A DNA stretch of 64,000 bases, taken from positions 1 through 64,000 of the IMG/VR virus record IMGVR_UViG_3300031957_002411; one strand, 5' to 3'. The translations under genes and the position numbers were made by a program. Source of the stretch: a virus. The notes under the pieces are model-generated. The model made no database searches. It was given only the letters and a program-made list of their open reading frames with translations, and had not been told where the DNA came from. Positions 964-61,283 of this stretch are shown here, piece by piece. Each line of letters opens with the position of its first letter. Position 1 is the stretch's first letter.

Positions 964-3282
964 ATGTTAAGATTAATTCTTACCATTATATTATCCTTAT
1001 CAGCATCTACAGCATTATCGCAACAAAATGGTATACAATTTTTTGAGAAGAATATTCGCCCTGTTTTAAACACGCAATGCTATTCATGTCATTCTTCTAC
1101 GTCTAAAGATGTCAAGGGAGGACTGTCCCTAGATACTAGACAAGGTATATTAAACGGTGGTGATTCTGGACCATCGGTTGTTCCCGGTAAGATAGATGAG
1201 AGTTTATTATTAGACTACATTGAGTCTGGTGATATGCCTCCAGATAATCCTCTGAGTGAGGAAGTTGTTGATAATTTTAGACAATGGATTAAAATGGGTA
1301 TGCCTGACCCAAGATACAAGCCTGAGAACAGAGCGGTAGAATTAAGACAGGCTAGAAATTTTTGGGCATTCAAAAAAGTAACAAGACCTCCTGTAGCTAA
1401 ATATGATGATGGCACAGAAATAGATGCCATATTAAATTTAGAAATAGAAAAACACAAATTAAAACCAGTAGAGGCAGCAGATGATTATACTATTATGCGT
1501 AGGCTTTATTTCGATCTTATTGGCTTACCGCCGAGCGTCGAACAAATAAAAGGTTATATAAATGATACATCAGAAGATAAGTATGAGAAGTTAGTTGATA
1601 GTTTATTGCAGGACGAAGGGTTTGGAGAAAAGTGGGGACGACATTGGCTTGATGTGGCACGGTTTGCAGAATCCTCTGGACAAGATAGAAATTTAGTTAG
1701 TCCATACGCTTGGAGATACAGAGATTATGTAATAGATAGTTTCAATCAAGATAAGCCATACGATCAATTCATTATAGAACAAATAGCTGGTGATCTACTA
1801 CCACACAAAAATTATAAAGAATACAATAATAATAGAATAGCTACGGGATTTCTGACAATAGGAACTAAGAACATACAGGCGCAGATTAGACAGTTTGAGG
1901 CAGATCGCAACGACGATCAGATAGACGCTATTACCAGAGGTTTTCTAGGCATGACATTGAGTTGTGCAAGATGCCATGATCATAAGTTTGACCCATTCTC
2001 TCAGCAAGATTATTATGGTGTAGCTGGAGTATTTAATAACACAAAAAACATGGACGGGTTGTATAGAGGTAATAATAACACTGGCTATCTTGGTGATTAT
2101 GATTTTCTTGTGAACGAAAAAACTGAAGAATTATACAAAAATAAAAAGATAGAAGAATGGTTTTTACTTTGTGATATTAAAAATGCTGAATACCAAATAG
2201 AATCTATTAAGACTTGGAACAAAAGAGCTACAGAAGATCAACTTAACAGAGAATTAGGTAGGAGACAGAAGATACTAAATGAAGCTAAATCAAAATTACC
2301 TGAAGAGTATTTAAAATACTTAGAGGATCTAGAACCTATAATGTCTGTTAAAGATAAAGATAAGATGAGTGAAGTAAAACTGGCAATCAGGGGCGAAGTA
2401 AATAATCTGGGCGATGAAGTACCAAGAAGATTACCAGAGATATTTAGTGATAGACCTAATCTTGACTTTGATAATACAAGTGGACGATACGAACTTGCGA
2501 AATGGGTAACACACAAGACTAATCCTTTGACATATAGAGTACATGTAAACAGAGTATGGATGCATTTGTTTGGCAAAGGTATACTAGACAGTTTTGATAA
2601 TTTTGGTATACTGGGTGGAGAACCTACCAACCTTAAACTGATGAACTATTTGTCAACAAAGTTTGTTACAGGTAGACTATCCAATAAAAGACTTATTAAA
2701 ACTATTGTCATGAGCAATGCTTATAGACGTAGTAGTAAGTTTGATAAACATAATTTTGAAATAGATCCTGACAATATTTACTTCTGGAGAATGAACGAGA
2801 AAAGATTAGAGGCTGAACAAATTAGGGATTCATTACTGTTTGTCTCAGGTAAACTAGACGGATCGCACAGCAACATAAGTGATTTTCAAACAGATATAAA
2901 AAATGCAGGCAAAGAACTAAGAAAGTATATAGGAGAAACAAAGTCTAGATCAATTTATATACCATCCTTGAGAGATAATAAGATTGAGATACTAGACATA
3001 TTCGACAGACCAGATAATAGTTTGCTTAGTGCTGAGAGAAGTGTTACGACAGTATCTACGCAGGCTTTATTCTTGATGAATAATCCTAAGATCATAGCAT
3101 TATCGCAAGAACAGGCGAAAGAGTTATCTGATGTTAATGAAATATTCTTAAAATTTTTAGGTCGTCCACCTGACGAAACTGAACTAGAAGCATCAATAGA
3201 TTTTATAGAAGCAGATAATAATAATCTCGCACACTTAATACAAATACTAATCTGCACAGGAGAATTTCGTAATGTTAAATAG
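964..3282 (+). CDS. Planctomycete cytochrome c (PSCyt1) + DUF1549 + DUF1553 (PSD1) protein
   Basis: Signal peptide; FFEKNIRPVL..CYSCH; RRLYFDLIGLPP, RHWLDVARFAES, CARCHDHKFDP; VNRVWMHLFGKG, RLEAEQIRDS, QALFLMN. Confidence 0.92.
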   Translation: MLRLILTIILSLSASTALSQQNGIQFFEKNIRPVLNTQCYSCHSSTSKDVKGGLSLDTRQGILNGGDSGPSVVPGKIDESLLLDYIESGDMPPDNPLSEEVVDNFRQWIKMGMPDPRYKPENRAVELRQARNFWAFKKVTRPPVAKYDDGTEIDAILNLEIEKHKLKPVEAADDYTIMRRLYFDLIGLPPSVEQIKGYINDTSEDKYEKLVDSLLQDEGFGEKWGRHWLDVARFAESSGQDRNLVSPYAWRYRDYVIDSFNQDKPYDQFIIEQIAGDLLPHKNYKEYNNNRIATGFLTIGTKNIQAQIRQFEADRNDDQIDAITRGFLGMTLSCARCHDHKFDPFSQQDYYGVAGVFNNTKNMDGLYRGNNNTGYLGDYDFLVNEKTEELYKNKKIEEWFLLCDIKNAEYQIESIKTWNKRATEDQLNRELGRRQKILNEAKSKLPEEYLKYLEDLEPIMSVKDKDKMSEVKLAIRGEVNNLGDEVPRRLPEIFSDRPNLDFDNTSGRYELAKWVTHKTNPLTYRVHVNRVWMHLFGKGILDSFDNFGILGGEPTNLKLMNYLSTKFVTGRLSNKRLIKTIVMSNAYRRSSKFDKHNFEIDPDNIYFWRMNEKRLEAEQIRDSLLFVSGKLDGSHSNISDFQTDIKNAGKELRKYIGETKSRSIYIPSLRDNKIEILDIFDRPDNSLLSAERSVTTVSTQALFLMNNPKIIALSQEQAKELSDVNEIFLKFLGRPPDETELEASIDFIEADNNNLAHLIQILICTGEFRNVK

Positions 3283-4570
3283 AAGAAATTTATTACAAGC
3301 CAGTAGTTTTGGTTTTGGTATGCTTGCTCTCAAAGGATTGATTGCAGAAGAGGCTATGCGAAATAATAAAAGAGTTATCTTTATGTATATGAATGGAGGC
3401 ATGACACATACAGATACTTTTGATTACAAACCTTTAATGGTAGAAAAAGATGGCACAGACGATCCTGTAAGTAAAGGTAGAAAGATTGTAAAGCCCGGAG
3501 TGCCATTGACTCCTGCTGGCAAAAGTGGTATAGAGATTAGCGAGAATTTCCCGCATCTAAGAAAACATGCAGATGATTTATGCTTACTCAACGGCATGAA
3601 AAGTAAAACAGGCAATCATAATCAAGCTAGAAGTTTATTGCACACAGGTAATTTTCAATTCAGCAGACCTAGCATGGGTAGCTGGCTATTATATGGATTA
3701 GGCACAGAGAATAAAGAATTGCCGGGGTTCATAACTATAGATGCTAATATCGGCCCTGATAACTATGGCAGTGCTTTTTTGCCAGCAGTATACCAAGGAA
3801 CTGCTATCAATGCTGGAAATGTTCAAAGTCCTATTCCTAATCTTAAAAGTCCAATAGCATTAGAAAAACAAAGAGAGAACCTAGATTTCCTCAGAGATTT
3901 AAATGGTCATCAATTAGGCAATGGTGAGAATAGCAGACTAGAAGGATTGATTGAGAGTTATGAATTGGCTTTTAGGATGCAGACAAGTGTTCCTAGTACT
4001 ATTAATATTACAAACGAACCACCAGCAGTATTAGAAAAATATGGAATAAATGATAAAGCTACAGCTAAATTTGGACGACAATGTTTATTAGCAAAGAAGT
4101 TTAGTGAAGCAGGAGTAAGGTTTGTAGAAATTGGACATGGTGGATGGGACATGCATCAGAATATTGTGGCAAATTTACAAAAACAAGCGTATAATATAGA
4201 TAAGCCAATTAGTGGTCTAATACAAGATTTGAAGGACTGCGGCCTTTTTGAAGACACAATTATATTGTTTGGCAGTGAATTTGGAAGAACTCCGGGTATA
4301 AAAGAAGGTGCAACTGGCAGAGATCATAACAATGGTGGATTTTCTATGTGGATGGCAGGCGGTGGGATTAAAGGTGGAATTAGACACGGTTCTACAGACG
4401 ATTTTGGACATAAAGCAATTCCAGAATATAGCATGGACATGCATGATTTACATGCTACAATTTTACATCTCATGGGCATAGACCACACTAAACTAACATA
4501 TAGATATAGTGGTAGAGATTTTAGGTTGACAGATGTGTTTGGTAATGTACAATATGATATTATAGCTTAG
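3272..4570 (+). CDS. DUF1501 family protein (Tat-type signal)
   Basis: NRRNLLQ twin-Arg leader; IFMYMNGGMTHTDTFDYKP, GWDMH, SEFGRTP, GRDH, DLHATILHLMGIDH. Confidence 0.92.
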   Translation: MLNRRNLLQASSFGFGMLALKGLIAEEAMRNNKRVIFMYMNGGMTHTDTFDYKPLMVEKDGTDDPVSKGRKIVKPGVPLTPAGKSGIEISENFPHLRKHADDLCLLNGMKSKTGNHNQARSLLHTGNFQFSRPSMGSWLLYGLGTENKELPGFITIDANIGPDNYGSAFLPAVYQGTAINAGNVQSPIPNLKSPIALEKQRENLDFLRDLNGHQLGNGENSRLEGLIESYELAFRMQTSVPSTINITNEPPAVLEKYGINDKATAKFGRQCLLAKKFSEAGVRFVEIGHGGWDMHQNIVANLQKQAYNIDKPISGLIQDLKDCGLFEDTIILFGSEFGRTPGIKEGATGRDHNNGGFSMWMAGGGIKGGIRHGSTDDFGHKAIPEYSMDMHDLHATILHLMGIDHTKLTYRYSGRDFRLTDVFGNVQYDIIA

Positions 4571-4907
4571 GGGGCGTAAAGGTTTCGACAGGTAAAAAGA
4601 AATATAGATCGCATCGGGTAGTTGATCAAGAGGCTACCTTAAAACTTGATTACAATTTTAATTGCCGATACTTCTGTATTAGCACTCGCTGCTTAGTGAG
4701 CGGGGTTTCCTAAACCCTGTTGCCCAATTAGGATGACTCCGATAATCGGATAGGGAACGCAACCTGAACTAAATAAGAAATTGGCGTATTCGTCATGGCG
4801 CTGGAAAGACAGATAGTTTTGTTTGTAGTATTAATAACAACAAACTAACGATGTAGAAGTTTATGTGGAGTTTATACTGGACAGGGGTTCGATTCCCCTC
4901 GCCTCCA
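4570..4907 (+). ncRNA. ssrA: tmRNA
   Basis: 5' GGGGGCG pairs with 3' CGCCTCC-A (G3.U Ala identity), GGTTTCGAC near 5' end, T arm AGGGG-TTCGATT-CCCCT; tag ORF 4664-4696 encodes ADTSVLALAA*. Confidence 0.93.
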
Positions 4908-4924
4908 CTTAGGAAAGGACAACA

Positions 4925-7229: not shown

Positions 7230-8111
7230 ATGAAAATTACATTTGGTATGATAGTATTTAATGGAAATTATGTGCTAAAAGAAGCCATAGAATCTATTTA
7301 TCCATACGCTCATCAAATTTTAGTAGCAGAAGGCCCAGTTCAATATTGGCAAGACGAGGGCTATCAAACTTCAAATGATGGCACGAACGATGTTTTATCT
7401 CAGCTTTACGACCCAGATCATAAAATAACTATAGTACACAGTCAATATAAAGAGAAGGATGATCAGTGCAATATGTACATGAGTCTTATGAAGCCAGATA
7501 CAGACTATGTATGGAATTTAGATTGCGATGAAGTATTCAAACCTAAAGATACAGAAAAAGTTTTAGAGTTACTTGAAAAAGAAAAGTACACATCTGTTGG
7601 ATTTAAGAGTCAAACTTTTTACGGAGGCTTTGAAAGATATCTTACAGGGTTTGAAGAAAATGCAGAATTTATTAGAATTAGAAAAGTATATCCCGGTTCT
7701 TATTGGTCTACACACAGACCGCCAACAGTGGCGCATGTAGTAAAAGCAGAGGACAGACTACCTGAAAAGCACTTAAACTACAACGTTTTGGCTGATGAAC
7801 ACGATGTAAGAATGTACCATTACTCTTATGTGTTCCCACATCAAGTGTTTAACAAGATAAAATATTATAAAGAGTTTTTAAATAGTGCGAATACTATAGA
7901 TAATTATTTTTCACATGTATATCTGCCTTGGGTTATAGGTAGTGATCATATGAAAAACATGATAGAAGACAAATATCATGGAGTTCACGAATGGATACCG
8001 CAAGCTAGAGGGGAATGCAGAACAGCAAAGTTTACAGGTGAGCATCCAGAAGTTATAAATATAGAAGAATTGAACCACAAACTTGAGAAACAATTGAGTA
8101 AATATATATGA
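7230..8111 (+). CDS. GT2-like glycosyltransferase
   Basis: TFGMIVFNG, SNDGT, LDCDE DxD, MYHYS. Confidence 0.8.
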   Translation: MKITFGMIVFNGNYVLKEAIESIYPYAHQILVAEGPVQYWQDEGYQTSNDGTNDVLSQLYDPDHKITIVHSQYKEKDDQCNMYMSLMKPDTDYVWNLDCDEVFKPKDTEKVLELLEKEKYTSVGFKSQTFYGGFERYLTGFEENAEFIRIRKVYPGSYWSTHRPPTVAHVVKAEDRLPEKHLNYNVLADEHDVRMYHYSYVFPHQVFNKIKYYKEFLNSANTIDNYFSHVYLPWVIGSDHMKNMIEDKYHGVHEWIPQARGECRTAKFTGEHPEVINIEELNHKLEKQLSKYI

Positions 8112-9633: not shown

Positions 9634-10553
9634 ATAGGATTATAGTTACTGGTGGAAAAGGTTTTTTAGGTAAAGTAGTAACCACCAATCTACATTCTAT
9701 GGGTATGGTACATGCTCTTGATAGTTCAATGTATGATCTTAGATCTTACGAAGAAACAGAGCAGATGTACATAGATTTTAATCCTAATATTGTTGTACAT
9801 TTAGCCGCTACGGTTGGAGGTATTGGGGCTAACAAAGAAAATCCGGGTAAATTTATTGAAGAAAACCTAGTAATGGGATATAATACTATCAAGTTAGCAA
9901 AAGAATATGGTGTTGAAAAATTTGTAATGCTAGGAACAGTGTGTTCATATCCCAAACATTGCCCAGTACCATTTAAAGAAGAGGATTTATGGAATGGCTA
10001 TCCAGAAGAAACAAATGCTCCATACGGAATAGCTAAGAAAACTCTTATGCAGATGATACAATCTTACAATCAACAGTATGGATTTAATGCAATTAATCTC
10101 ATACCCGTGAATATGTATGGGCCTAATGATAATTTTGATCCTAAATCTAGCCACGTTATACCTGCACTGATTTTAAAATTCCAACAAGCAATTGATAATG
10201 GTCATGAACCTGTTGAGATCTGGGGGACAGGTAGGGCTAGTAGAGAATTTCTATACGTTGATGATTGTGCAGAAGCTATAAAACTTGCAATCAAAAAATA
10301 TAATAGACCTGAACCAACAAATATTGGAACAGGTAAAGAAATTACAATTATGGAATTAGCACAGAAAATATCAATAATTATGGGACATAAAGGAAGCATA
10401 CACTATAATCCTAAATATCCAGATGGTCAACCAAGAAGATGCTTAGATACATCTAAGGCTAAAGAACGTTTTGGCTTTGAAGCAACAACTGATTTCGACA
10501 CAGGACTAACTAAAACAATAGAATGGTTTAGAAATGATTACAGTAATACTTAA
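9630..10553 (+). CDS. fcl: GDP-L-fucose synthase
   Basis: GGKGFLG, HLAATVGGIGAN, LGTVCSYP, YGIAK, SSHVIPAL, WGTG..SREFLYVDD, PDGQPRR. Confidence 0.9.
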   Translation: MNRIIVTGGKGFLGKVVTTNLHSMGMVHALDSSMYDLRSYEETEQMYIDFNPNIVVHLAATVGGIGANKENPGKFIEENLVMGYNTIKLAKEYGVEKFVMLGTVCSYPKHCPVPFKEEDLWNGYPEETNAPYGIAKKTLMQMIQSYNQQYGFNAINLIPVNMYGPNDNFDPKSSHVIPALILKFQQAIDNGHEPVEIWGTGRASREFLYVDDCAEAIKLAIKKYNRPEPTNIGTGKEITIMELAQKISIIMGHKGSIHYNPKYPDGQPRRCLDTSKAKERFGFEATTDFDTGLTKTIEWFRNDYSNT

Positions 10554-11280
10554 TGGGTACAGAAGACCTCATGTTCTAGAAGAACAGTATAACGCTATCA
10601 AAAATCAAACTTTAAATGAGATTGATGGTATAATGCTGTGGTGTAATTTTGATGAAGAGTCTATGTCTAAGTATCCAGCCCACGTAGTACAAAATTGTAC
10701 AGCTGCTTTTTGCAATCAAAATTTAGGCGTATGGGCTAGATTTTCTTACGCACTGAATAGTTTTTCAAAGTATATTTGCATGATTGACGATGATACTATA
10801 CCGGGATCAAAATGGCTACAAAACTGTGTTGATACCATGCAAACACACAGGGGAGTATTAGGATGCAGAGGTGTTCGCATGACCGGCGATGATTATTTAA
10901 ATTACCCCGGATGCCAATATGAAAGTTTTGGAGCAAGTAATCCTAATGAACAAGTTGAAGCAGTAGATATAATGGGTCACTGCTGGTTTTTTGAAAGAGA
11001 ATGGCTAAGGGCATACTGGGCTGAATCGCCATCTTCTAGATTAACAAGTGGTGGAGAAGATATGCACATGTCTTATGTGGTGCAAAAACATTTGGGTTTA
11101 TATACTTACGTTCCACCACATCCAAAAGATGATAAAGAAATGTGGGGTTCTCTTGATCCAAATACTCATGGTGAGGATATGGTAGCTACTTCTAGGACGG
11201 GAGAAGGCCACATGCAAGCACACGCATATTGGAACTATATTATAAAAAATGGTTATACTCTGGTTAAGGATAGAAAATGA
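10534..11280 (+). CDS. GT-A glycosyltransferase
   Basis: TVILNGYRR, IDDD, GEDM motifs. Confidence 0.75.
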   Translation: MITVILNGYRRPHVLEEQYNAIKNQTLNEIDGIMLWCNFDEESMSKYPAHVVQNCTAAFCNQNLGVWARFSYALNSFSKYICMIDDDTIPGSKWLQNCVDTMQTHRGVLGCRGVRMTGDDYLNYPGCQYESFGASNPNEQVEAVDIMGHCWFFEREWLRAYWAESPSSRLTSGGEDMHMSYVVQKHLGLYTYVPPHPKDDKEMWGSLDPNTHGEDMVATSRTGEGHMQAHAYWNYIIKNGYTLVKDRK

Positions 11281-13657: not shown

Positions 13658-14561
13658 AAAGGTTACAAACTGTTATTACAACAGATCTTGTAGTGGGGTG
13701 GGAGATTTTTTACGTGGTTGTTGTCATCTTTTTGATATTTTAAATAACAACCTATCAATCTCTTTTAGCGCTCACGATCTAGGAAACTATATTTCTACGA
13801 AGTGTAAAAAGAAAATAGTTGACGATGAAATATTTGACACAGAAAGTTACAACAAAGATAACTGTGATAAGTATAATTACTTTGATAATATGAAAACAAA
13901 TTTAGAAAATGCACTAAACAACAACGAGGAAGATATGAAATTGTTCTCTAATTATTCTGATCACATTGTAGATTTAGAGGGTTACTTTTTATCACAAGAC
14001 TGTAAATCTTTCATGAAAGATAATATCATCTTTAGTGATGACATAGAGAGAGAGTTTTCTGAGCTGGGTATTGAAGATTATAATGTAATTCATTTTAGAC
14101 TAGGTGATAGGGAGTGTTGTGAAAGTGTCACGAATGAAGAACTAGATAGATACAATATCAATACTGCCATGTTCGACATAGACTACGGCAATTTATTTAG
14201 AGAGGTTTATTCATATTACCTACGTAGTAATCCAATTATAGGAGAAGAAAAAACCTTGGTAGTGCTTTCAGACTCTAATAAATTCAAAGATTTTCTAGAG
14301 GTCTTTTTAGGAGATAAACCTTGGGATATTCGCGTTATACACAAAAAAAGTCTACATTCTTCAGACAATCCGGGTTTTGTTAAGAGTTTAAACGTTGACA
14401 GGGAAGAAAAAATTGATAAAATGAGGTATGTAGCGTTAGATATGAAGGTCATTTCTAAGGCAAGTGAGATAAAATCATACAGTGTTTATCCTTGGGGATC
14501 TGGTTTTGCCTTCTGGTTAGCTAGGATATTTGATATTCCAATCTCTAATAATAGTGTATAA
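13647..14561 (+). CDS. fucosyltransferase-like protein (GT11/GT23-type motif)
   Basis: GVGDFL, IHFRLGD (HxRxGD), VLSDS, SGF; start taken as ATG 13647. Confidence 0.55.
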   Translation: MKNKKVTNCYYNRSCSGVGDFLRGCCHLFDILNNNLSISFSAHDLGNYISTKCKKKIVDDEIFDTESYNKDNCDKYNYFDNMKTNLENALNNNEEDMKLFSNYSDHIVDLEGYFLSQDCKSFMKDNIIFSDDIEREFSELGIEDYNVIHFRLGDRECCESVTNEELDRYNINTAMFDIDYGNLFREVYSYYLRSNPIIGEEKTLVVLSDSNKFKDFLEVFLGDKPWDIRVIHKKSLHSSDNPGFVKSLNVDREEKIDKMRYVALDMKVISKASEIKSYSVYPWGSGFAFWLARIFDIPISNNSV

Positions 14562-16902: not shown

Positions 16903-17769
16903 ATGAATTACATTATTGCAAATGACGGAAACGTAACAGCGACAGTAGCAGGTGAAGTTTACACCTTTGGCAAGTCGCATCCAAGATACGAAAGACTTAT
17001 TACTCATCTTAAGAATAATAATGTCGAACACTTTGAGGCATCCTATGATATCGTGTCGCATGTAAATGCGTATTGCGATGGATATGCCAGCGTTGAGAAT
17101 GGCAAGATGAAATGGGATGGGATTGATATGCCAGAGATGTTTGGTGGTACAATCCTTGATATGATCCAGCAGGGTTATCCTTTTGAGCCTATGCTTAACT
17201 TCCTTGATAACATGTCGCAGAATCCATCTGACCATGCTATCACAGAACTGTTTGAGTTTATGGAAAATAAGAACATGCCTATCACACCTGATGGACATTT
17301 CTTAGCATATAAAGCAGTATCTTCTAACTATAAAGATTTGTACTCTAATACATTTGATAACAGTGTTGGAAGTACGTGTGAGGTTCCACGTAGCAAAGTA
17401 AATGGAAACAGAGAACATCATTGTGCTGCTGGACTACACGTTGGAGCATTTGATTATGCCAAGTCATATGGCGGGATCGACTTGGATGATGACGAAGGCG
17501 GTGGTGGCAACAAGCTTATGATTTGCAAGGTTAATCCACGCGATGTTGTAAGTGTGCCAAACGACTGCCGTTGTCAGAAGTTACGCTGCTGTAAGTACGA
17601 AGTAGTCAGTGAGTTTGAAGACTTACTAAAGAGTGTTGTCCACATGACAAAGGACGACATTGACTACTCTAATCTCAAGAAGCGTAATAAGGAATGGATT
17701 GTCGAGGTCACTGCTAAGTTGGAGCGTGTCAATAACGTTCTCAAGAAGCGTGAAGCTGTTCTTAGCTAG
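16903..17769 (+). CDS. rIIB: rIIB-like protein
   Basis: DGHFLAYKAV, FDNSVG, CAAGLHVG, KVNPRDVVSVP, KLRCCKYEV. Confidence 0.85.
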   Translation: MNYIIANDGNVTATVAGEVYTFGKSHPRYERLITHLKNNNVEHFEASYDIVSHVNAYCDGYASVENGKMKWDGIDMPEMFGGTILDMIQQGYPFEPMLNFLDNMSQNPSDHAITELFEFMENKNMPITPDGHFLAYKAVSSNYKDLYSNTFDNSVGSTCEVPRSKVNGNREHHCAAGLHVGAFDYAKSYGGIDLDDDEGGGGNKLMICKVNPRDVVSVPNDCRCQKLRCCKYEVVSEFEDLLKSVVHMTKDDIDYSNLKKRNKEWIVEVTAKLERVNNVLKKREAVLS

Positions 17770-36222: not shown

Positions 36223-36645
36223 ATGAAGGTTACTGGTATAAATGGCAAAGAATACGCTTGGAATTTAACAAGCTATTCCGTAGACGCAAACGACAAACGC
36301 AAGCGGTCAAAGTTCCACGTTCGCGCAAGAGAACTCTTGAAGACTATCTTCCATAGCTACAGGATACTAGAAGAAGTTAAATTACCGGGAAGTACTGAAT
36401 CGCACAGAAAAGGTGTACTATATTTAGATTTTTATATACCACAGATTATGATGGCTATAGAGGTTCATGGTCAACAACATTATGAATACACACCATTCTT
36501 CCACAAGAATAAAGCAGACTTTGCACTTGCGCAAGCCAAAGATGATGATAAGATTAGATGGTGCGAATTAAATAAAATTGATATAATAGTATTAAAGCAC
36601 TCTGACACAGACGAGCAATGGAGAGATCAAATTGAAAACGGTTAA
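36223..36645 (+). CDS. PD-(D/E)XK / DUF559-like endonuclease
   Basis: EEV, LDFYIP, AIEVHGQQHY, DDDKIRWC. Confidence 0.7.
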   Translation: MKVTGINGKEYAWNLTSYSVDANDKRKRSKFHVRARELLKTIFHSYRILEEVKLPGSTESHRKGVLYLDFYIPQIMMAIEVHGQQHYEYTPFFHKNKADFALAQAKDDDKIRWCELNKIDIIVLKHSDTDEQWRDQIENG

Positions 36646-42176: not shown

Positions 42177-43043
42177 ATGATAAAAAAAGATAATAAATTA
42201 CTGACGATAGGAATGGCTACCTACGATGATTATGACGGTTTGTATTTTTCAATACAGAGTTTACAGTTATATCATCCAATCGCTAGAAGTGATGATGTAG
42301 AAATACTAGTTATCGACAATAATCCAGACAGTGAACACGGAAAAGCGACTAAGAATTTAGTAGAAGGATGGATAAAAAACGGACGATATATACCATTTAC
42401 AGCAAGAAAAACAACAGCTTGTAGAAATGAGATTTTCAGGAATGCAAGGGGCAGATATACAATATCTATGGATTCTCATGTTCTGTTCATGAAAAATTCA
42501 TTAGAATCCTTGATACAGTATTACGGAATGAATCCTAATTGTAAAGACATAGTTCAAGGACCACTAATTTATGATGACTTAAAACTGGCTTCAACTCATT
42601 TCAAAAAAGATTGGGGTGGTGACATGTATGGTAAATGGGCTACAGATAAAGAAGGTTTAGCGACTAATAAGCCTTTCCCCATACCAATGCAAGGATTAGG
42701 TGTATTCTCTTGTGAGACGCATAATTGGAGAGGTTTTAATAAATATTTTAGAGGATTTGGTGGAGAAGAAGGATATATTCATGAAAAATTTAGAATGATG
42801 GGCGGCAGGGCCATATGTTTACCGCAATTTAAGTGGCTTCACAGATTTGGAAGACCCGGAGGTGTTCCTTATCCACTAAAAATAGAAGATAGAATATGGA
42901 ACTATTTTATAGGATGGTTAGAACTGTATCAGGATGAAAATCATCAAATGATACAAGACATTTATAATTATTTTAAAACTCGTATTCCTGTGCAGACTTT
43001 AGACAATATTCTAAATGAAGCTAAAGAAAAAATGTTAATTTAA
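42177..43043 (+). CDS. GT2 glycosyltransferase
   Basis: LTIGMATYDD, VIDN, MDSH, FRGFGGEE. Confidence 0.82.
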   Translation: MIKKDNKLLTIGMATYDDYDGLYFSIQSLQLYHPIARSDDVEILVIDNNPDSEHGKATKNLVEGWIKNGRYIPFTARKTTACRNEIFRNARGRYTISMDSHVLFMKNSLESLIQYYGMNPNCKDIVQGPLIYDDLKLASTHFKKDWGGDMYGKWATDKEGLATNKPFPIPMQGLGVFSCETHNWRGFNKYFRGFGGEEGYIHEKFRMMGGRAICLPQFKWLHRFGRPGGVPYPLKIEDRIWNYFIGWLELYQDENHQMIQDIYNYFKTRIPVQTLDNILNEAKEKMLI

Positions 43044-43053: not shown

Positions 43054-43899
43054 ATGCCCACACCTAAACGTGGAAAAGAAGAAGATCGCAATAAATTCAT
43101 GTCCAGATGTATGCGTGATCCTAACATGAAAGAAGATTACAAGGAAGGCAATCAAAGAGTTGCTGTATGCCTAAATCAAGCTACAGAGGGTATGGATTTG
43201 ATTCAAAAAGCAGACTTTGAGAAACAAGTTAAAGAATATGGATATGCGGAAGAACTTGATGAAAACAATTTTTACGTTCCAGCAGAAGCTGAATACGAAG
43301 ATTTTGGGGAACCAGAAGAAGAATGGGACATTTCGATAGCAAAACCGGGACTTTGGGAAAATATTCGCAGAAAAAAAGAACGTGAAGGCAAGAACTATAA
43401 GCCAGCTAGAACTGAAAAAGAAGGTAGGCCCACACAAGAGCAACTTAAAAGAGCGCAATCAGAACCAAGCGAAAAGCAAAAAAAAGCTCTTGATAAAAAC
43501 AAAGATGGCAAGATCAGCAAGGAAGATTTTGAATTGCTACGTAAAGGTAAAAGTTCGTACAAGTATGAAGATCCAAAAACAGGACAAGTATTTACCTATA
43601 CAAGAAGAGGTAACTATAAAAATGGAGATACGCCCTTAATATATAAAGGTGAAGCAGCGGAATATCAGGGTAGAAAAGTTAAACTTGGTAAGCCATTCCT
43701 CACTCCAGACGGTCCTAAAAAAAGAAGCGTATATGTAAAGAATGATAAAGGTAACGTAGTCAAGGTAAACTTTGGCGATCCTAATATGGAAATTAAAAAG
43801 GATAATCCTGCAAGAAGGAAGTCTTTCAGGGCTAGACATAACTGCGATAACCCCGGACCACGCTGGAAAGCACGATACTGGTCCTGCAAAGCTTGGTAA
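43054..43899 (+). CDS. modular phage protein with EF-hand and DUF6321-like C-domain
   Basis: DKNKDGKISKED; AEYQGRKVKL, VNFGDP, RRKSFRARHNC, ARYWSC. Confidence 0.7.
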   Translation: MPTPKRGKEEDRNKFMSRCMRDPNMKEDYKEGNQRVAVCLNQATEGMDLIQKADFEKQVKEYGYAEELDENNFYVPAEAEYEDFGEPEEEWDISIAKPGLWENIRRKKEREGKNYKPARTEKEGRPTQEQLKRAQSEPSEKQKKALDKNKDGKISKEDFELLRKGKSSYKYEDPKTGQVFTYTRRGNYKNGDTPLIYKGEAAEYQGRKVKLGKPFLTPDGPKKRSVYVKNDKGNVVKVNFGDPNMEIKKDNPARRKSFRARHNCDNPGPRWKARYWSCKAW

Positions 43900-43909: not shown

Positions 43910-44536
43910 ATGAAATACATTAACGATATAGACAAACAAATATGTAAATCTGACGAGGGCAATATGGCTAAGGGCCAGCTTATGAAAATCTCTAAGCAGG
44001 CTGGAGAGCTAGCTGAAAAAATACAAAGTGGTATGAATTTAGACGCTTGGGTACAAGACAAGATATCTAAAGCAGAACATTTTATTGAAGCGGCATATGA
44101 CTTCATGATGTACAGCGAAACAGAAGCGTCACAAACACAAGCAGACAAGCCGGGACCAAAAGATCCTAGAAGAACTCCTGCGCCTAAGAAAGATCAGAAA
44201 AAGGGCAGTAAGAAAAACAAGCCTGATAGTGCTAAAGATGATAAAGGTAAGATTAGCTTTAATCAAAGCACTACAAAAAGGCTACAGCAAAAAGTAAAAG
44301 AACATAACGCAAAGGGTAAGGGTAGCAAGGCAACGCTTGGTATGCTCAAGGCAGTGTACAGAAGAGGTGCTGGTGCATACTCTACTTCTCATGCGCCTAA
44401 AATGAGTAGAGATGGTTGGGCTATGGCTAGAGTAAACGCCTTTCTTACGCTACTCAGAACAGGTAGACCCTCTAACTCAGGTTATAAACAAGACAATGAC
44501 TTGTTGCCCAAGGGACATCCGAGAAGTTCAAAATGA
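43910..44536 (+). CDS. modular basic phage protein (DUF5824-like C-domain)
   Basis: EGNMAKGQL, WVQDKIS, AVYRRGAGAY, WAMARVNAF. Confidence 0.65.
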   Translation: MKYINDIDKQICKSDEGNMAKGQLMKISKQAGELAEKIQSGMNLDAWVQDKISKAEHFIEAAYDFMMYSETEASQTQADKPGPKDPRRTPAPKKDQKKGSKKNKPDSAKDDKGKISFNQSTTKRLQQKVKEHNAKGKGSKATLGMLKAVYRRGAGAYSTSHAPKMSRDGWAMARVNAFLTLLRTGRPSNSGYKQDNDLLPKGHPRSSK

Positions 44537-46371: not shown

Positions 46372-47167
46372 AACTTGGATATTGGGACCATGCTCTATAG
46401 AGTCGGAAGCATTGTTTTTCGAGTGTCTTGCTGAAATCAACTCAATTATGGATACTAGAACTGTTCATAGAGAATCCGATGATACATGGTACATGAAAGC
46501 TAGTTTTGATAAGGCAAATAGGACATCCTTACATGGTGGTCGTGGTCCGGGTCTGGAAGAAGCTTTAAAAATATGGGCTGCTGCAAAAGAGAAATACCCA
46601 AAAGTTAAATTTACAACAGATGTGCATGAGTGCCATCAAGTAGAAAAACTAAAGGGTGTTATTGATGTAGTGCAAATACCAGCATTTTTGTCGCGTCAGA
46701 CTGATCTTATTGTAGAGTGTGCTAAACACTTTGATGTTGTCAATATTAAAAAAGGTCAATGGCTTGGTCCAAATAACCTTAAAGCTTCTGTAGATAAGAT
46801 TAAAGAAACAAACGATAAGTGTCAAGCTTGGGTTTGTGACAGAGGATCAAACTTTGGTTATCATGATTTGTTTGTAAACTTTGGAATTGTAGACGAACTC
46901 AAAAAGTGTTATGACAAAGTAATCCTTGATTGCACACATTCAACCCAAAGATCCAGAGAAGTGTATGGCGTACAAGGCGATCCAGTATTAGCTGAGAGAT
47001 ACTTTTTAGCTGCTGATATTTTTAATTACGATGGAGTTTTTGCAGAGGTTCATCCTAGACCAAAAGAGTCTGTGTCAGATGGAGAATGTCTTATTGATCT
47101 TGAACGACTTCGTTCTTTAGTTATAGAGGCTAAATCTATTAAAAGATTGAGAGAAAAATTACGATGA
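46364..47167 (+). CDS. kdsA: KDO8P synthase-like enzyme
   Basis: GPCSIES, KASFDKANRTS, TTDVHE, QIPAFLSRQTDL, NIKKGQ, DCTHSTQ, EVHP. Confidence 0.9.
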   Translation: MYKTWILGPCSIESEALFFECLAEINSIMDTRTVHRESDDTWYMKASFDKANRTSLHGGRGPGLEEALKIWAAAKEKYPKVKFTTDVHECHQVEKLKGVIDVVQIPAFLSRQTDLIVECAKHFDVVNIKKGQWLGPNNLKASVDKIKETNDKCQAWVCDRGSNFGYHDLFVNFGIVDELKKCYDKVILDCTHSTQRSREVYGVQGDPVLAERYFLAADIFNYDGVFAEVHPRPKESVSDGECLIDLERLRSLVIEAKSIKRLREKLR

Positions 47168-47838: not shown

Positions 47839-49000
47839 AGTTAAATTTCTTGATTTAGGCAAACAACCTATAGCAAATAGATTTTTAAGTAAAGATGATT
47901 TTGAGAATGAATTTTTCTATAATCTTCAAGTTGGCGTAGACAAAGAAACAATGCTAGTTACACACATGAACTATGTAGATGCACCACTTATGTTCAATGA
48001 CAACTATGCATATAGGGGTTCAATGTCAAAGACTATGGTTAATCATTTTCAGAGTTTTAGTTCATTGATCAGAACATCCTTAAAACCTGAAGCAAAGATT
48101 TTAGAAATAGGTAGCAATGACGGAGTGTTCCTAAAAAATTGGCATACAGATAATACTATTGCTGTAGAGCCTTGTGGTAACTTTGCAAAAGAAACAAATG
48201 ATTTAGGATATAAAACATATGATGAATTTTGGACAGAGGATTTAGCAGAAAGAATAGTAGAAGAACACGGTCAGATGGACTTTATTTTTTCAGCTAATTG
48301 TATGTGTCACATACCAGATTTAGACCAAACTTTTAACGCTATAGTAAAAGTCATGGATCATAATGGTATATTTGTGTTTGAAGACCCATCATTATTACAA
48401 ATGATTTGTTTAAATTCATATGATCAAATATACGATGAACACCCACATGTATTTTCAATAACATCTTTAGATAGAATATTAAGAAAACATGGACTATTTA
48501 TAATTAAAGTAGAAAATACTACAGTGCATGGTGGATCAAATAGAGTATGGGTTCAGAAAAAACATGCAAATAGGGATAGAACAGTAGAAGATAATCTCAA
48601 TGCAGAAAGAGTAATGGGGCTTTGTGATATGTCTACTTATGATAAATTCGCTGAGTCTGTAGACAAGTCAAAAAATGATTTAGTAAATCTGTTGAAAAGA
48701 TGTAAAGCTGATGGTAATAAAGTTATATCATACGGCGCAACTTCAAAATCAACTACTGTATTTAATTACTGCAATATTGGAACTAATCTTATTGACTATA
48801 TTACAGACACTACCCCTGAAAAACAAGGACTTTATTCTCCCGGTATGCACATACCAATTATACCACCGGAGCAGGGAGTTGATAAAACAGTAGACTTTGC
48901 TTATTTAGGTGCTTGGAATTTTGCTCAAGAAATACAAGAAAAAGAAAAGAACTTTCATGGGAAATTTATAACACATGTACCTACAGTAAGGATATTATGA
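47831..49000 (+). CDS. NDP-hexose C-methyltransferase
   Basis: LDLGKQPIAN, LEIGSNDG, YDQIYDEH, HGGS, YGATSK, KQGLYSPG, AWNF. Confidence 0.85.
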   Translation: MDKVKFLDLGKQPIANRFLSKDDFENEFFYNLQVGVDKETMLVTHMNYVDAPLMFNDNYAYRGSMSKTMVNHFQSFSSLIRTSLKPEAKILEIGSNDGVFLKNWHTDNTIAVEPCGNFAKETNDLGYKTYDEFWTEDLAERIVEEHGQMDFIFSANCMCHIPDLDQTFNAIVKVMDHNGIFVFEDPSLLQMICLNSYDQIYDEHPHVFSITSLDRILRKHGLFIIKVENTTVHGGSNRVWVQKKHANRDRTVEDNLNAERVMGLCDMSTYDKFAESVDKSKNDLVNLLKRCKADGNKVISYGATSKSTTVFNYCNIGTNLIDYITDTTPEKQGLYSPGMHIPIIPPEQGVDKTVDFAYLGAWNFAQEIQEKEKNFHGKFITHVPTVRIL

Positions 49001-51454: not shown

Positions 51455-52155
51455 GATTACTAGTATCTGGTGGGAATGGCAAATTTTGCAATAAACTTAT
51501 ACAAAAAAATAAAGATCATGAAATATTTGCGCCTGATAGATATGACATGGATATTACTAATATTAATTCTGTAAAAAGCAATATTAGTAAATTCAAACCA
51601 GATATATTTTTACACGCAGCAGCACTGACTAGACCAATGGTTAACCATGTAGACAGGCCACACATAAGTATAAAAACTAATATTATTGGTACTGGAAATG
51701 TCTGTTTAGCTTGCATGGAAAGTAATCTAAAACTAGTCTATATTTCTACTGATTATGTATATCCCGGCACGAAAGGTGATTATAGAGAAGATGATCCCCT
51801 TTTACCAGTAAATGAGTACGCTTGGTCTAAATTGGGTGGAGAATGTGCTGTGCATTTATACAAAAATTCACTTATAATTAGGACTTGTATGACAGAAAAA
51901 CCCTTTGTGCATACCCACGCATTAGTAGATTGTAAAAAAAGCATGATTTATATTGACGATGCAGCAGAAATATGCTTGAAAATTTTAGGCCAAACGGGTA
52001 TCATTAATTTAGGCGGGTCTCCTACTTCTCCTTACGAATTTGTAAAAAAAGATAATAAAGACATAGGGAAGATATATATGGAAGACGTATCAGATGTTGA
52101 TATGGCTGAAGATAGTACGATGAATATAGACAAGCTAAAAAAGGCATTGACATGA
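51451..52155 (+). CDS. rmlD: dTDP-4-dehydrorhamnose reductase-like
   Basis: GGNGKF, HAAA, YISTDYVY, NEYAWSKLGGE, IIRT. Confidence 0.8.
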   Translation: MRLLVSGGNGKFCNKLIQKNKDHEIFAPDRYDMDITNINSVKSNISKFKPDIFLHAAALTRPMVNHVDRPHISIKTNIIGTGNVCLACMESNLKLVYISTDYVYPGTKGDYREDDPLLPVNEYAWSKLGGECAVHLYKNSLIIRTCMTEKPFVHTHALVDCKKSMIYIDDAAEICLKILGQTGIINLGGSPTSPYEFVKKDNKDIGKIYMEDVSDVDMAEDSTMNIDKLKKALT

Positions 52156-57157: not shown

Positions 57158-58723
57158 TTGAACTGGTTTCCATTGAAGAACTTTACGCATTATAGTTTAC
57201 TAAGAGGATTCTCTAAGCCACACGAACTTGCAAAGATTTGTGCTGACAATGATTATCCAGCATGTGGTATTACAGACTACAAATCTATATCAGGCGCTGT
57301 GTCTTTTCACCAAGCTTGTAAAAAAGTTGGAATCAAGCCAATCATAGGATGCTCATTTGATAACACGACTGTATACGCAAAAAACAAAGATGGATGGCAC
57401 GATCTAATACAAATGGTATCAATGACTGACGAAAATGGCAACATGCCAACAGATATTGCTAAAGATATTATTAGTAGAAATAACCTAGTAGCACTACCAA
57501 AATCTAAAGATAAAATAAAACCTTCGTATTATGTAAAAAAAGAACAAGCTGGATTACATAGAGTTTTATTATGTTCTGCCCTAAAAACAACACTGCCCAA
57601 AATCCAAACTCAAATACGTAAAAAAGAATTAGACAAAGATATACTAGAGTACTTCAATAAAGATGATAAATGTGTCACTGAAGGTGAGGTGACTAAAGAA
57701 TTAGAATACATATACAATTCTTGTGAAGAATACGATATACTAAGCCCACCAATGTTGCCTACCTTTGTTTGTCCTAATGGTATGTCACAAGAAGAATATC
57801 TAACAAATATGGCTAGAAAGGGATATACTGAATTATTAAAACCAAAGGTTGGTAAAGACAAAGAAAAGCAAAAAGTTTATGGTGACAGATTTCAGAAAGA
57901 GTTAGAGGTAATCAGAAATGCAGACCTGTTTGGCTACTTCTTGATTGTTCAAGATATTATCAGACATATAGAAAAAGATATGGGTTGTTTAGCTGGACCG
58001 GGGAGAGGATCTGCTGCTGGTTGTCTGATATCATATCTTATTGGAATCACTAAGATTGATCCAGTAGAACATGATTTGCTATTTGAAAGATTTTATAATG
58101 CGGGTCGTAATGCTGGTGGTAACGTTTCTTTGCCCGATATTGACATGGACGTTCCGGGCAAGAGAAGAGATGATGTCATAGACTATCTCAAGGAAACATA
58201 TGGTAAAGAACATGTTAGTCAAATGATTACGTTTGGAAGACTACAGGGACGTAGTGCTATTAAAGAAGTTTTAAGAATTAATGATGCTTGTTCCTTTAGC
58301 GAAATGAACACTATAACTAAAAGTGTTCCAAATGAAGCAGAAATATCTGACCAACTGGTAGAAATGGACGATGAAGATAGATCAATTATTAAATGGTCTC
58401 TCATGAATCGTGCAGACGAACTAAGAGATTTTTGTCATATAACAGACGATGGAAAGCTTGAAGGTGACTACGCAGAGTATTTCCAGCAAGCAATAGAAAT
58501 AGAGGGAACTTTTAAAACGCAGGGTAAACATGCTGCTGGTGTTGTCATATCAAAAGACAAGCTGAAGAATGTTTGCCCAATGGTAGAACAGAAAGGATCT
58601 ATTGAAAAGATAGCAGGTTTAGAAATGTCTGATCTAGAAGCGCTAGGTCATGTAAAATTTGACGTTCTAGGAATCAATCTTCTAGATAAACTCATGAAAA
58701 TTAAGGAATTAACTAATGGCTAA
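57158..58723 (+). CDS. dnaE: DNA polymerase III alpha, N-terminal half (degenerate PHP + palm/thumb)
   Basis: THYSLL.G, GITD, KPIIG; GPGRGSAAG, LLFERF, PDIDMD, HAAGVVI, KFDVLG then stop. Confidence 0.9.
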   Translation: MNWFPLKNFTHYSLLRGFSKPHELAKICADNDYPACGITDYKSISGAVSFHQACKKVGIKPIIGCSFDNTTVYAKNKDGWHDLIQMVSMTDENGNMPTDIAKDIISRNNLVALPKSKDKIKPSYYVKKEQAGLHRVLLCSALKTTLPKIQTQIRKKELDKDILEYFNKDDKCVTEGEVTKELEYIYNSCEEYDILSPPMLPTFVCPNGMSQEEYLTNMARKGYTELLKPKVGKDKEKQKVYGDRFQKELEVIRNADLFGYFLIVQDIIRHIEKDMGCLAGPGRGSAAGCLISYLIGITKIDPVEHDLLFERFYNAGRNAGGNVSLPDIDMDVPGKRRDDVIDYLKETYGKEHVSQMITFGRLQGRSAIKEVLRINDACSFSEMNTITKSVPNEAEISDQLVEMDDEDRSIIKWSLMNRADELRDFCHITDDGKLEGDYAEYFQQAIEIEGTFKTQGKHAAGVVISKDKLKNVCPMVEQKGSIEKIAGLEMSDLEALGHVKFDVLGINLLDKLMKIKELTNG

Positions 58724-59396
58724 TAGAGACTTTATTGTATTTGACTTTGAAACAGGAAGTCGTAATCCTCATAAAACACAACCCACGCAAATTGCTGCTT
58801 TGGCTTTAGATGGTCGTAATCTTGCTATGAAAGGTACATTCAACAGTGAAATTAGACCTATCTTAAACGACGAAGCCGCTATTGCTGCTGGGTTAGATCC
58901 AATTGAAGACGGAGCATTAAAAGTTACAGGAAAAAATAGAAAAGATCTAGCGAAGGCTCCAACTCTAAAATCAGTTTGGAAAAAGTTTTGCACATTTGTA
59001 GATAAGTATAATTGGAAAAAAGATCCATTTTATAATCCTATACCTGTTGGATATAATATTATAGGATTTGACATGGTTATAATCAACAGGTTATGTAAAG
59101 AGTATGGACCATTTGACGATGCTAGACAACAGCAAAAAATATTTAGCAGAGTTCACAAATGTGACGTTATGGATAACATGCATATGTGGACAGAGGGTGA
59201 TCCTAGCATCAGATCTATCAGCATGGATACGTTGCGTGAACGCATGGGACTGTCGAAAGAAAATGCACATGATGCGTTGCAAGATGTTAAGGATACGACT
59301 AATATATTTATAAAGCTACTAAAGACTCATCGCGCAGTTTACCAAGAAATACAACTAGACAAGGCTTTTGCTAATGGAAACCTCTACGTTAAGTAA
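58716..59396 (+). CDS. DEDDh 3'-5' exonuclease (DnaQ-like)
   Basis: VFDFETG, GYNIIGFD, AHDALQDV. Confidence 0.88.
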   Translation: MANRDFIVFDFETGSRNPHKTQPTQIAALALDGRNLAMKGTFNSEIRPILNDEAAIAAGLDPIEDGALKVTGKNRKDLAKAPTLKSVWKKFCTFVDKYNWKKDPFYNPIPVGYNIIGFDMVIINRLCKEYGPFDDARQQQKIFSRVHKCDVMDNMHMWTEGDPSIRSISMDTLRERMGLSKENAHDALQDVKDTTNIFIKLLKTHRAVYQEIQLDKAFANGNLYVK

Positions 59397-59724
59397 AGTA
59401 TGCAAGACCTGTGGTATAAAAAAGTCAAACGATGAGTTTGTAAAGGCTGATGGTCAACATCGCTCAACGAGAAACAGATGCAAAGATTGTCATAAAGCAC
59501 AAGCAAACATACGAAAGAAGTTAAGAAAAGAAAACCCACCGCCAAAAAGTGGGAAATGTCCAATATGTCAAAAGCATACAGAGGATTGGGTTTTAGATCA
59601 TTGCCATGTTAATGAAAGTTTTAGAGGATATATCTGTAGATACTGTAACTCTGGGATAGGATTGTTAGGCGACGATGTAGACGGTGTGGTCAACGCATTG
59701 AATTATTTAATTGAAAGAAGATAA
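59374..59724 (+). CDS. endonuclease-VII-type His-Me nuclease (probable homing endonuclease)
   Basis: CKTC..CKDC; CPIC, LDHCH, RGYICRYCN.GIG. Confidence 0.8.
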   Translation: METSTLSKVCKTCGIKKSNDEFVKADGQHRSTRNRCKDCHKAQANIRKKLRKENPPPKSGKCPICQKHTEDWVLDHCHVNESFRGYICRYCNSGIGLLGDDVDGVVNALNYLIERR

Positions 59725-61283
59725 TGAAATACAACGACGAAAAAACTTGGCAGTTGTTTGAGGAAGGCAAAACAAAAGGTGTCTTCCAGTTAGAGAGTAA
59801 TCTTGGTAAGTCTTGGTCTAAGAAATTAGCACCAAGTAATATAGAAGAATTGTCAGCACTTATTGCGATTATTCGTCCGGGCTGTTTAAAAGCATATGTT
59901 GATGGAAAATCTATGAGCCAACATTTTATTGATCGTAAGCATGGTCGTGAAGAAGTCACGTACCTACATGAATCTCTAGAAGAAATTTTAGCACCAACGT
60001 ATGGCGTTCTTGTGTATCAAGAGCAGTCCATGCGTATTGCGCAAAAAATAGCAGGATTTGATCTACAAGAAGCAGATGAGCTTCGTAAAGCCATTGGAAA
60101 GAAAAAGGCTGACCTAATGGCTAAAGTTAAAAAGAAATTTATAGCTGGTGCAAAAAAGGTTGGTATAGTCAACAAGGAAGAAGCAGAAGAAATATTTGGA
60201 TGGATTCAAGCATCTTCTAGGTACGCATTTAACAAATCACATAGTATATCATATGCTGTTTGTTCATATTGGAGCGCGTATGAGAAAGCTCATCATCCAG
60301 AAGAATTTTTCTTATCATATTTGTACTATGCAAATGAAAAACAAGACCCACATCAAGAAGTATATGAATTATTTTCTGAGGCAAAGTTATTCGATATTCA
60401 AGCAAGAACACCAAGTCTTGCAAATTTTGATACAAAGTTTAATGCTAAAAAGGGTAAAATATATTTTGGTATAAAGGATATTAAATCACTTACAGGTAAA
60501 ACTGGAGACAGAGTTGTTGACTCAGTAAAAGAAGTAGAAGAAGAACTAGGAAAACCAATGACTAAGTTCACATGGGTTGAAATACTCTTGTTCTTTGCTC
60601 CCAAAATTACTTCAACAGCTTTTAAAGCGCTTGCTTCTATAGGATTTTTTAGGGACTTTAAGGATAAAATATCTAGAAATAAAGCTCTATACGACTATGA
60701 TATATACAGATTACTAACCAAGGCAGAGCAAAAATGGATACAAACAAATTACCAAACAAAGAAATGGAAAACTTTTATAGCCTGCTTAGAGGATTTAGCA
60801 CCAACAAAAAAGAATGGTGGTGGAACCCACAAAATCGAAAGATCGCAAGCTGTTGAGAATGAGATACAGTTATTACTAGACCCTCCATACGCCTTAGATG
60901 ACGACCCAAACTGGATTATAGATCAAGAAACTAGATTTCTAGGATGCCCAGTATCAATGACTAAGGTAGAGGTTGCAGATACTTCAGCAGCTAATACCAC
61001 TTGCAAAGATATCATAAATGGTAAGAAAGGCAAAGATATATGTGTAGTGGGCAACATTCAAAGAATGGCAGACTATACTATCAGCAAGGGTGACTCAAAG
61101 GGGAAGCTCATGTCATTTCTAACCATAGAGGATGACACATGCATTTTAGATAGTGTTGTAGTATTTCCAAAAATTAGACAGAAATATAAATATATATTAT
61201 ACGAAGGTAATAATCTGATATTTTGCGGCTCTGTTGCCAAACACGAAACATCTCTAATAGTCGATAAAATTTATGAAATTTAA
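59724..61283 (+). CDS. dnaE: DNA polymerase III alpha, C-terminal half (fingers, HhH, OB)
   Basis: GKTKGVFQLES, IRPG, TYGVLVYQEQ, ADELRKAIGKK, YAFNKSH, MSFLTIEDDT. Confidence 0.9.
   Translation: MKYNDEKTWQLFEEGKTKGVFQLESNLGKSWSKKLAPSNIEELSALIAIIRPGCLKAYVDGKSMSQHFIDRKHGREEVTYLHESLEEILAPTYGVLVYQEQSMRIAQKIAGFDLQEADELRKAIGKKKADLMAKVKKKFIAGAKKVGIVNKEEAEEIFGWIQASSRYAFNKSHSISYAVCSYWSAYEKAHHPEEFFLSYLYYANEKQDPHQEVYELFSEAKLFDIQARTPSLANFDTKFNAKKGKIYFGIKDIKSLTGKTGDRVVDSVKEVEEELGKPMTKFTWVEILLFFAPKITSTAFKALASIGFFRDFKDKISRNKALYDYDIYRLLTKAEQKWIQTNYQTKKWKTFIACLEDLAPTKKNGGGTHKIERSQAVENEIQLLLDPPYALDDDPNWIIDQETRFLGCPVSMTKVEVADTSAANTTCKDIINGKKGKDICVVGNIQRMADYTISKGDSKGKLMSFLTIEDDTCILDSVVVFPKIRQKYKYILYEGNNLIFCGSVAKHETSLIVDKIYEI

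Follow-up and report, generated by a model that had tools for sequence, protein, structure and literature searches.

The stretch of DNA examined here, which we call the window, comprises the first 64,000 bases (1–64000) of a 135,790-bp viral record (IMG/VR IMGVR_UViG_3300031957_002411, hereafter G000), and this analysis concerns the absence from it of the word CCWGG and of some thirty other short words. G000 is ∼83% complete by CheckV and has no terminal repeat; its GC content is 36.4%, and that of the window 35.2%. Simple gene calling based on open reading frames gave 143 genes covering 95.6% of the record; a plus-strand arm (586–69,739) contains 91 of them, and large structural genes form an arm on the minus strand. 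By Pfam, the record carries a tailed-phage set (terminase, tape-measure and cement proteins, and a Clp protease), replication genes (a split DNA polymerase III alpha, DnaB, primase, and RecA), nucleotide-metabolism genes (class II ribonucleotide reductase, ThyX, dCMP deaminase, and dUTPase), and many sugar-nucleotide and glycosyltransferase genes. Two host-like genes, also assigned by Pfam, lie near the left end: a PSCyt1/PSCyt2/PSD1 gene (964–3282, +) and a DUF1501 gene (3272–4570, +). G000 is a large tailed double-stranded DNA phage, and it is probably virulent, since no integrase family was seen among 142 proteins scanned (Pfam, in the ∼83% of the genome recovered).

CCWGG does not occur once in the window, compared with 43.2 ± 7.1 copies in dinucleotide-preserving shuffles (n = 100) and 51.1 under a maximum-order Markov model. 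The CCWGG-free zone extends over the whole of G000, where the same model expects 123.2 copies, and no 4- to 6-mer falls further below expectation than CCWGG (z = −8.7 in the window and −13.6 in G000). We also used a codon-aware null in which synonymous codons were shuffled within each gene, keeping the proteins and the per-gene codon usage (300 shuffles). Under this null the window genes would hold 37.0 ± 4.3 copies (minimum 27) and those of G000 90.7 ± 6.5 (minimum 73), vs zero observed in both. All three reading frames are cleared (57, 12, and 22 copies expected in G000 by codon shuffling), as are 6 kb of non-coding DNA and the genes on both strands. The Markov method is unbiased, judging by 200 kb each of a Verrucomicrobia single-cell genome, a Planctomycetota metagenome-assembled genome (MAG), and a Flavobacteriales MAG: observed/expected counts of CCWGG were 334/432, 332/352, and 114/115, and the 28 hexamers absent from G000 (see below) reached ratios of 0.99, 1.01, and 0.88, respectively.

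Codon choice follows this absence closely. Proline before glycine is coded CCC or CCG in 30/30 cases in the window and 73/73 in G000, vs CCA or CCT before other residues in 580/663 and 1446/1651 cases (87%). An NCC codon never stands before TGG (0/49 in the window, 0/93 in G000); by comparison, the third base is C in 289/3683 such codons elsewhere in the window. All 30 Pro-Gly pairs of the window lie on the plus strand. They read CCCGGT at 1183–1188 (in the PSCyt gene), 7692–7697, and 48839–48844; CCCGGA at 3494–3499 (in the DUF1501 gene), 10906–10911, 30452–30457, 30785–30790, 42046–42051, 42855–42860, and 43852–43857; and CCCGGC at 23802–23807 and 51763–51768. With CCG as the proline codon, they read CCGGGG at 3722–3727 (in the DUF1501 gene), 23640–23645, and 57998–58003; CCGGGT at 4292–4297 (in the DUF1501 gene), 9843–9848, 14370–14375, 24033–24038, 35482–35487, and 46547–46552; CCGGGA at 10801–10806, 32736–32741, 36385–36390, 42163–42168, 43345–43350, and 44150–44155; and CCGGGC at 23925–23930, 58154–58159, and 59877–59882.

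These counts bear out an earlier note on this DNA, which had reported by eye a window free of CCWGG with about thirty Pro-Gly pairs written CCS-GGN: the window total is exactly 30, the fourteen pairs that the note singled out are all in-frame Pro-Gly coded CCC/CCG-GGN, and the count remains far from expectation under codon shuffling. Purifying selection against CCWGG must still be acting, because 2,515 different single substitutions would each create a copy. We also considered a cost of the purge at the level of the proteome. Pro-Gly is infrequent in G000 (73/124, ratio 0.59), but CCWGG-bearing relatives (0.84) and viral loci that are neither related nor purged (0.68) have low ratios too, and no such effect can be claimed.

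CCWGG is one of many missing words, for which we give observed/expected counts in the whole of G000 (Markov expectation). G000 has no copy of 28 of the 64 palindromic hexamers, for which 232 copies were expected altogether, and the others are close to expectation, almost none being intermediate. When only coding sequence is considered, 29 are at zero; in 100 codon shuffles this number averaged 1.0 and never exceeded 3. Missing hexamers include CTGCAG (0/24), GGATCC (0/20), CCATGG (0/14), and GCATGC (0/13); of the 32 hexamer palindromes that have at least four G/C, 26 are missing, and the AT-rich TTCGAA and ATCGAT are purged as well. Degenerate words are affected too (GGYRCC 0/47, GRCGYC 0/33, GDGCHC 1/77), and YGGCCR is purged as a whole set, including its asymmetric member TGGCCG (0/6.5). 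The same holds for interrupted palindromes, namely GCTNAGC (0/25), TCCNGGA (0/17), GGTNACC (0/16), CCTNAGG and CCTN5AGG (0/12 each), and GACN3GTC and GACN4GTC (0/11 each), and for two non-palindromic hexamers, CCAGTC (CCAGTC/GACTGG, 0/27) and CACGAG (1/12). Grouping the palindromic, degenerate, interrupted, and non-palindromic sets gives a total of ∼34 purged words. By word counts, the window itself (1–64000) lacks, besides CCWGG, the 28 palindromic hexamers, GGYRCC, GDGCHC, GRCGYC, YGGCCR, GGTNACC, GCTNAGC, CCTNAGG, CCTN5AGG, GACN3GTC, TCCNGGA, and CCAGTC.

Nearly all of these words are recognition sequences of classical type II enzymes, including PstI, BamHI, NcoI, SphI, SmaI, BanI, Bsp1286I, AcyI, EaeI, BstEII, BlpI, Bsu36I, EcoNI, Tth111I, PfoI, and BssSI; we know of no prototype enzyme for CCAGTC.

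Selection targets the exact dyad-symmetric words, not composition or structure, because hybrids of two purged half-sites remain: CCAAGG (47/49), ACCGGA (13/13), CGACCG (4/4), ATCGAA (38/24), CTCGAC (7/8), GGATCG (32/20), CCATGC (41/27), and CTGCAC (49/34). One-substitution neighbours of CCAGTC are all at expectation, six GC-rich palindromes have escaped the purge (CAGCTG 44/41, AGCGCT 21/23, GCTAGC 19/28, and TGCGCA 11/13 are four of these), and so have GATC (491/546) and GANTC (360/365); AAGCTT is another kept word. The pattern fits site-specific, mostly dimeric cutters and does not fit a compositional or structural bias. GTAC (294/423), CGCG (37/87), and GGCC (79/134) are partly depleted, beyond what the purged hexamers that contain them can explain. 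Nine copies of nearly purged words survive, and three of them (GDGCHC at 111094, ACCNGGT at 109412, and AGGNCCT at 110543) lie in a single 1823-amino-acid structural gene outside the window (G000 107888–113359, −) that makes up 4% of the genome; this gene may be recently recombined DNA in which the purge is incomplete.

The purge is shared across a clade. At least 596 terminase relatives were present in a viral contig collection, and in the best 80 of them (74–88% identity, 917 kb) CCWGG occurs 34 times vs 715 expected and is absent from 68. Pooled counts in these 80 contigs are zero for CTGCAG (0/121), GTCGAC (0/72), GTGCAC (0/59), CGTACG (0/57), CTCGAG (0/41), CGATCG (0/40), and CCGCGG (0/33). 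TTCGAA, ATCGAT, TGGCCA, ACCGGT, and TCGCGA are near half of their pooled expectation; these are words purged in some lineages only. Complete relatives of 155–195 kb were also seen. Among relatives with no CCWGG, Pro-Gly is coded CCC/CCG in 361/361 cases, compared with CCA/CCT in 14/24 in five CCWGG-bearing relatives. Seven relatives hold 29 CCWGG sites, of which 20 align to G000, several being one position counted in more than one relative. Nine of the 20 are CCSGG in G000, the relatives writing Pro-Gly as CCA/CCT-GGN and G000 as CCG/CCC-GGN, and at the other 11 the difference is of another kind, in some cases altering a residue.

Which words are missing varies from one sister lineage to the next, as expected of an avoidance that tracks exposure. 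Among five longer relatives (G001–G005), G003 has a profile similar to that of G000, and G002 retains TTCGAA, ATCGAT, and TGGCCA. G001 is cleared of CCWGG (2/43) and GDGCHC (0/55) and keeps GGYRCC (21/39), GGATCC (9/22), CCATGG (9/13), ATCGAT (23/21), and ACCGGT (14/21). A further related contig (L040) retains both CCWGG (10/10.4) and GDGCHC (11/8). The purge of CCAGTC extends to G000, G001, G003, and G004, and its counts in G002 and G005 are as expected; that of CACGAG takes in all of G000–G005 except G003. On a terminase tree built by a quick method, contigs with two or more CCWGG copies form four small nested groups, which requires at least four changes.

The two host-like genes, PSCyt and DUF1501, share in the purge. 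Their GC content is 35–37%, their four Pro-Gly pairs (1183, 3494, 3722, and 4292) are all CCS-GGN, and they contain no CCWGG vs 4.2 expected, a zero reached in 0/1000 shuffles. Fourteen phage homologues likewise have no copy in 18 kb, compared with 20 copies in 9.6 kb of eight bacterial homologues (44–65% GC). DUF1501 is carried by 16 viral contigs at 80–90% identity, several copies lying deep inside contigs of 117–166 kb, and around it these contigs together hold nine CCWGG vs 208 expected. The two are long-established phage genes, and the long residence that had been proposed for them is supported. Beyond these contigs, 21 unrelated DUF1501-bearing viral loci (L199–L219) include 11 with no CCWGG where 6–13 copies are expected, and others at expectation (e.g. 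16/17.8); CCWGG avoidance is common among such aquatic phages.

No sign of self-protection was found in the recovered part of G000. Pfam assigned no DNA methyltransferase family to any of the 142 proteins scanned, and PF00145, PF01555, and PF02086 had no six-frame match in G000 (∼83% complete) or in G001–G005, the word-keeping relatives included. No anti-restriction or methylase PHROG was matched by 54 otherwise unannotated proteins, a scan that covered unannotated proteins outside the structural arm. The ThyA family (PF00303), which has the fold of base hydroxymethylases, was not found in G000. T4 beta-glucosyltransferase (PF09198) gave no match either, a weak blank, as this family matched no control. 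The sugar genes fall into families typical of cell-surface polysaccharides (RmlA/B/D-like, DegT, FdtA, a C-methyltransferase, Kdo8P synthase, CMP-Kdo synthetase, and GDP-mannose dehydratase). Because of these families, and because no hydroxymethylase was found, it is reasonable to suppose, as the earlier note did of the glycosyltransferases, that the sugar genes leave the DNA unshielded.

Taken together, the purge very probably represents restriction-site avoidance under many orthodox type II enzymes. Phage DNA would enter the host without protective modification at the purged words, and variants carrying targets of restriction endonucleases common in the host population would be cut and, over a long time, lost. 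The genome would thereby be cleared of about thirty short, mostly dyad-symmetric words, CCWGG being the most frequent and hence the most visible. Removal would be mostly synonymous (CCA/CCT-GGN to CCC/CCG-GGN, and no NCC before TGG), with an occasional residue change, and continuing purifying selection would keep the words out. Sister lineages would have met other host strains and so acquired different sets of purged words. We infer both the agency of restriction enzymes and their identity. The selecting force had been attributed to a host system targeting CCWGG; host cutting is retained as the agent, but the single-site scope is not, since CCWGG is one word of about thirty, and the 28/64 hexamers and the degenerate, interrupted, and two asymmetric words at or near zero point to a broad enzyme repertoire instead of one Dcm/EcoRII-type system.

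Several observations weigh against this reading. No cognate restriction enzyme was matched to any purged word, and a methyltransferase or anti-restriction gene could sit in the missing part of a genome that is ∼83% complete. More than thirty specificities are very many for one host population. The three bacterial genomes of candidate host type show no matching depletion, which neither supports nor excludes them as hosts. Finally, two of the purged words, CCAGTC and CACGAG, are non-palindromic, and Rusinov et al. (2018, PMC6286503) describe systematic avoidance of non-palindromic sites as rare.

Each of the other explanations accounts for part of the pattern. CCWGG is the Dcm/EcoRII-type site, the strongest signal, and the most widely purged word in the clade, and it is also missing from 11/21 unrelated DUF1501-bearing loci, which speaks for one host system of this type. 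That such a system explains everything is nevertheless extremely unlikely, as it leaves the 28 hexamers and the degenerate, interrupted, and asymmetric words unexplained; these mostly share no letters with CCWGG and so are not by-products of its removal. The same identity of the site suggests mutational decay, in which a host Dcm would methylate phage CCWGG and deamination of 5-methylcytosine would erode it. Yet the products show no clear excess (CTAGG/CCTAG 136/135, ratio 1.01; CTTGG/CCAAG 291/259, ratio 1.12) where other one-substitution neighbours reach ratios of 1.2–1.6, and the largest excess is that of CCSGG (77/48), the replacement actually seen. Decay would moreover give neither complete loss nor synonymous outcomes, nor loss of other words, and we find it scarcely credible. 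The signal was first spotted at Pro-Gly codon pairs, as a translational or codon-pair bias against CCW-GGN would predict, but we give this practically no credence: all frames, both strands, and 6 kb of non-coding DNA are cleared, and close relatives use CCA/CCT-GGN freely (14/24).

Nucleases of the phage itself might instead cut these words in host DNA, the phage lacking them for its own immunity, and G000 does encode PD-(D/E)XK, ERCC4-type, HNH, and endonuclease VII nucleases. These families are the usual ones in phage recombination, packaging, and homing, however, and about thirty independent words that switch between sister phages would need as many nucleases, which makes this account very unlikely. 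The loss of 26/32 GC-rich hexamer palindromes could also be taken to reflect one or a few unconventional host defence nucleases with a loose preference for such sequences. We judge this highly improbable, given the six exceptions at expectation, the untouched half-site hybrids, the purge of AT-rich TTCGAA and ATCGAT and of interrupted words, and the independent switching of words that the five longer relatives indicate. For a sequencing or assembly artefact we found no supporting evidence, and its probability is negligible: the same purge occurs in 68/80 separately assembled contigs and, for CCWGG, in 16 further DUF1501 contigs (9 vs 208), and reading frames are intact with synonymous changes.

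Several genes were considered as indicators of the host. DUF1501 has best bacterial matches of 43–45% identity in a Planctomycetota MAG, a Chthoniobacteraceae MAG, and Roseiconus, but Bacteroidia reach 39–45% too, so the gene does not discriminate. PSCyt matches genomes of the Planctomycetota–Verrucomicrobiota–Chlamydiota (PVC) group over its full length (525 bits; 19–61 matches per genome), vs 17 of 301 Bacteroidia genomes in which no matched stretch extends beyond the N- or C-terminal half (at most 206 bits), and this leans towards a PVC-group host. The Bacteroidia samples include one genome flagged as unpublished (G186), on which no conclusion depends. Terminase matches in bacterial genomes number five, in MAGs labelled SAR202, Silvanigrellaceae, Rickettsiales, Flavobacteriales, and ‘bacterium’; so scattered, they look like binning noise and were set aside.

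The transfer-messenger RNA (tmRNA) had one match among species-representative genomes, at 85% identity, in a Flavobacteriales MAG (G006) that also holds a different tmRNA of its own. This candidate was rejected too, since the match lies on a contig that is a piece of a related phage and has no CCWGG, vs 114/115 in the rest of the MAG. A BLAST search of the tmRNA against 301 Bacteroidia matched only its 3′ end, in two other genomes. Two or more contigs of G006 (C23, NZWA01000009.1) derive from phages: one carries the tmRNA together with a ThyX that shares 72% identity with that of G000, and the other carries a terminase 54% identical; GC varies from 24 to 33% between its contigs, and contamination by viral contigs is probable. 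A Planctomycetota host, which the earlier note had in mind, is thus faintly suggested by PSCyt and finds no such support in DUF1501, the terminase, or the tmRNA.

The tmRNA gene of G000 is full-length (4570–4910, +; Rfam RF00023, 116.6 bits; tag peptide ADTSVLALAA) and separates the DUF1501 gene from the phage gene that follows; loci from eight close relatives yielded no such gene. A tRNA-Arg gene (anticodon TCT; 472–543, +) lies near the left end of the window, and in a relative (L184) this tRNA also lies upstream of the PSCyt/DUF1501 block. Further along the window are a RIIB-like protein (16903–17766, +; PHROG 609, E = 5e-63) in an otherwise siphovirus-like phage, and two proteins with Mtd_N (major tropism determinant N-terminal) domains (25922–27599, +), the larger of which is built of many SGxLNTSVGxLE-like repeats and probably serves as a receptor-binding fibre. 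Two genes within 57158–61283 (+) together encode DNA polymerase III alpha, one with PHP and NTPase domains (57158–58723) and one with the finger domain (59724–61283), separated by an RNase T-type exonuclease (58716–59396) and an endonuclease VII gene (59368–59724). Megablast of 20 kb of the window found no close cultured relative, and among 61 phage records that match the terminase, none exceeds 27% identity to it. We found no paper describing this phage clade or its word purge, which is not proof that none exists.

The mechanism proposed here is textbook, and our understanding of how phages escape restriction is unchanged by it. The value of the case lies in a very clean and very broad example from an abundant uncultured aquatic phage lineage, in which exact palindromes are gone and half-site hybrids kept, which is direct sequence evidence for dimeric site-specific cutters. 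Sister lineages also differ in individual words, so purge fingerprints of this kind could, as the earlier note proposed, give a host-strain signal if matched to methylomes; they also predict restriction specificities (e.g. CCAGTC) in uncultivated bacteria. More tentatively, the on/off pattern of about thirty words across the clade may record the restriction specificities circulating in each host population. If so, reading it against the methylomes and restriction-modification (R-M) genes of MAGs would assign hosts at the strain level, an uncultured aquatic bacterial group would deploy dozens of orthodox type II enzymes, and enzyme turnover would be faster than about 20% terminase divergence.

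Among known systems, those of the EcoRII/Dcm type share their recognition word, CCWGG, with the purge in G000, which differs from them in leaving no clear deamination footprint; no enzyme of this type was located in any host. Restriction-site avoidance itself was reportedly treated in older work by Sharp (1986), Karlin (1992), and Rocha (2001), and the purge is an extreme form of this well-known phage escape from restriction enzymes. Rusinov et al. (2018, BMC Genomics, PMC6286503) report avoidance concentrated in non-temperate double-stranded DNA phages and orthodox type II sites, with near-complete site elimination in about a tenth of viral genomes. G000 resembles the cases described there in being a tailed double-stranded DNA phage from which palindromes of the orthodox type II kind are completely eliminated, with mostly synonymous recoding and no phage methyltransferase found. 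It is unlike them in purging about thirty words, among them CCWGG with more than 100 expected copies and two non-palindromic words, and, whereas those published cases are defined by their link to cognate systems, the enzymes behind its own purge are putative. Plasmids reportedly avoid the targets of R-M systems as well (Shaw et al. 2023, PMC10359461); there too mobile DNA has lost such targets, although in plasmids, vs a phage here. G000 shows several features of restriction-site avoidance, namely the absence of words against composition- and codon-aware nulls, the confinement of the purge to exact short palindromes, and its variation between related phages, and it contradicts none of those tested; the case stands out for its breadth, its two asymmetric words, and the word-by-word switching among sister lineages.

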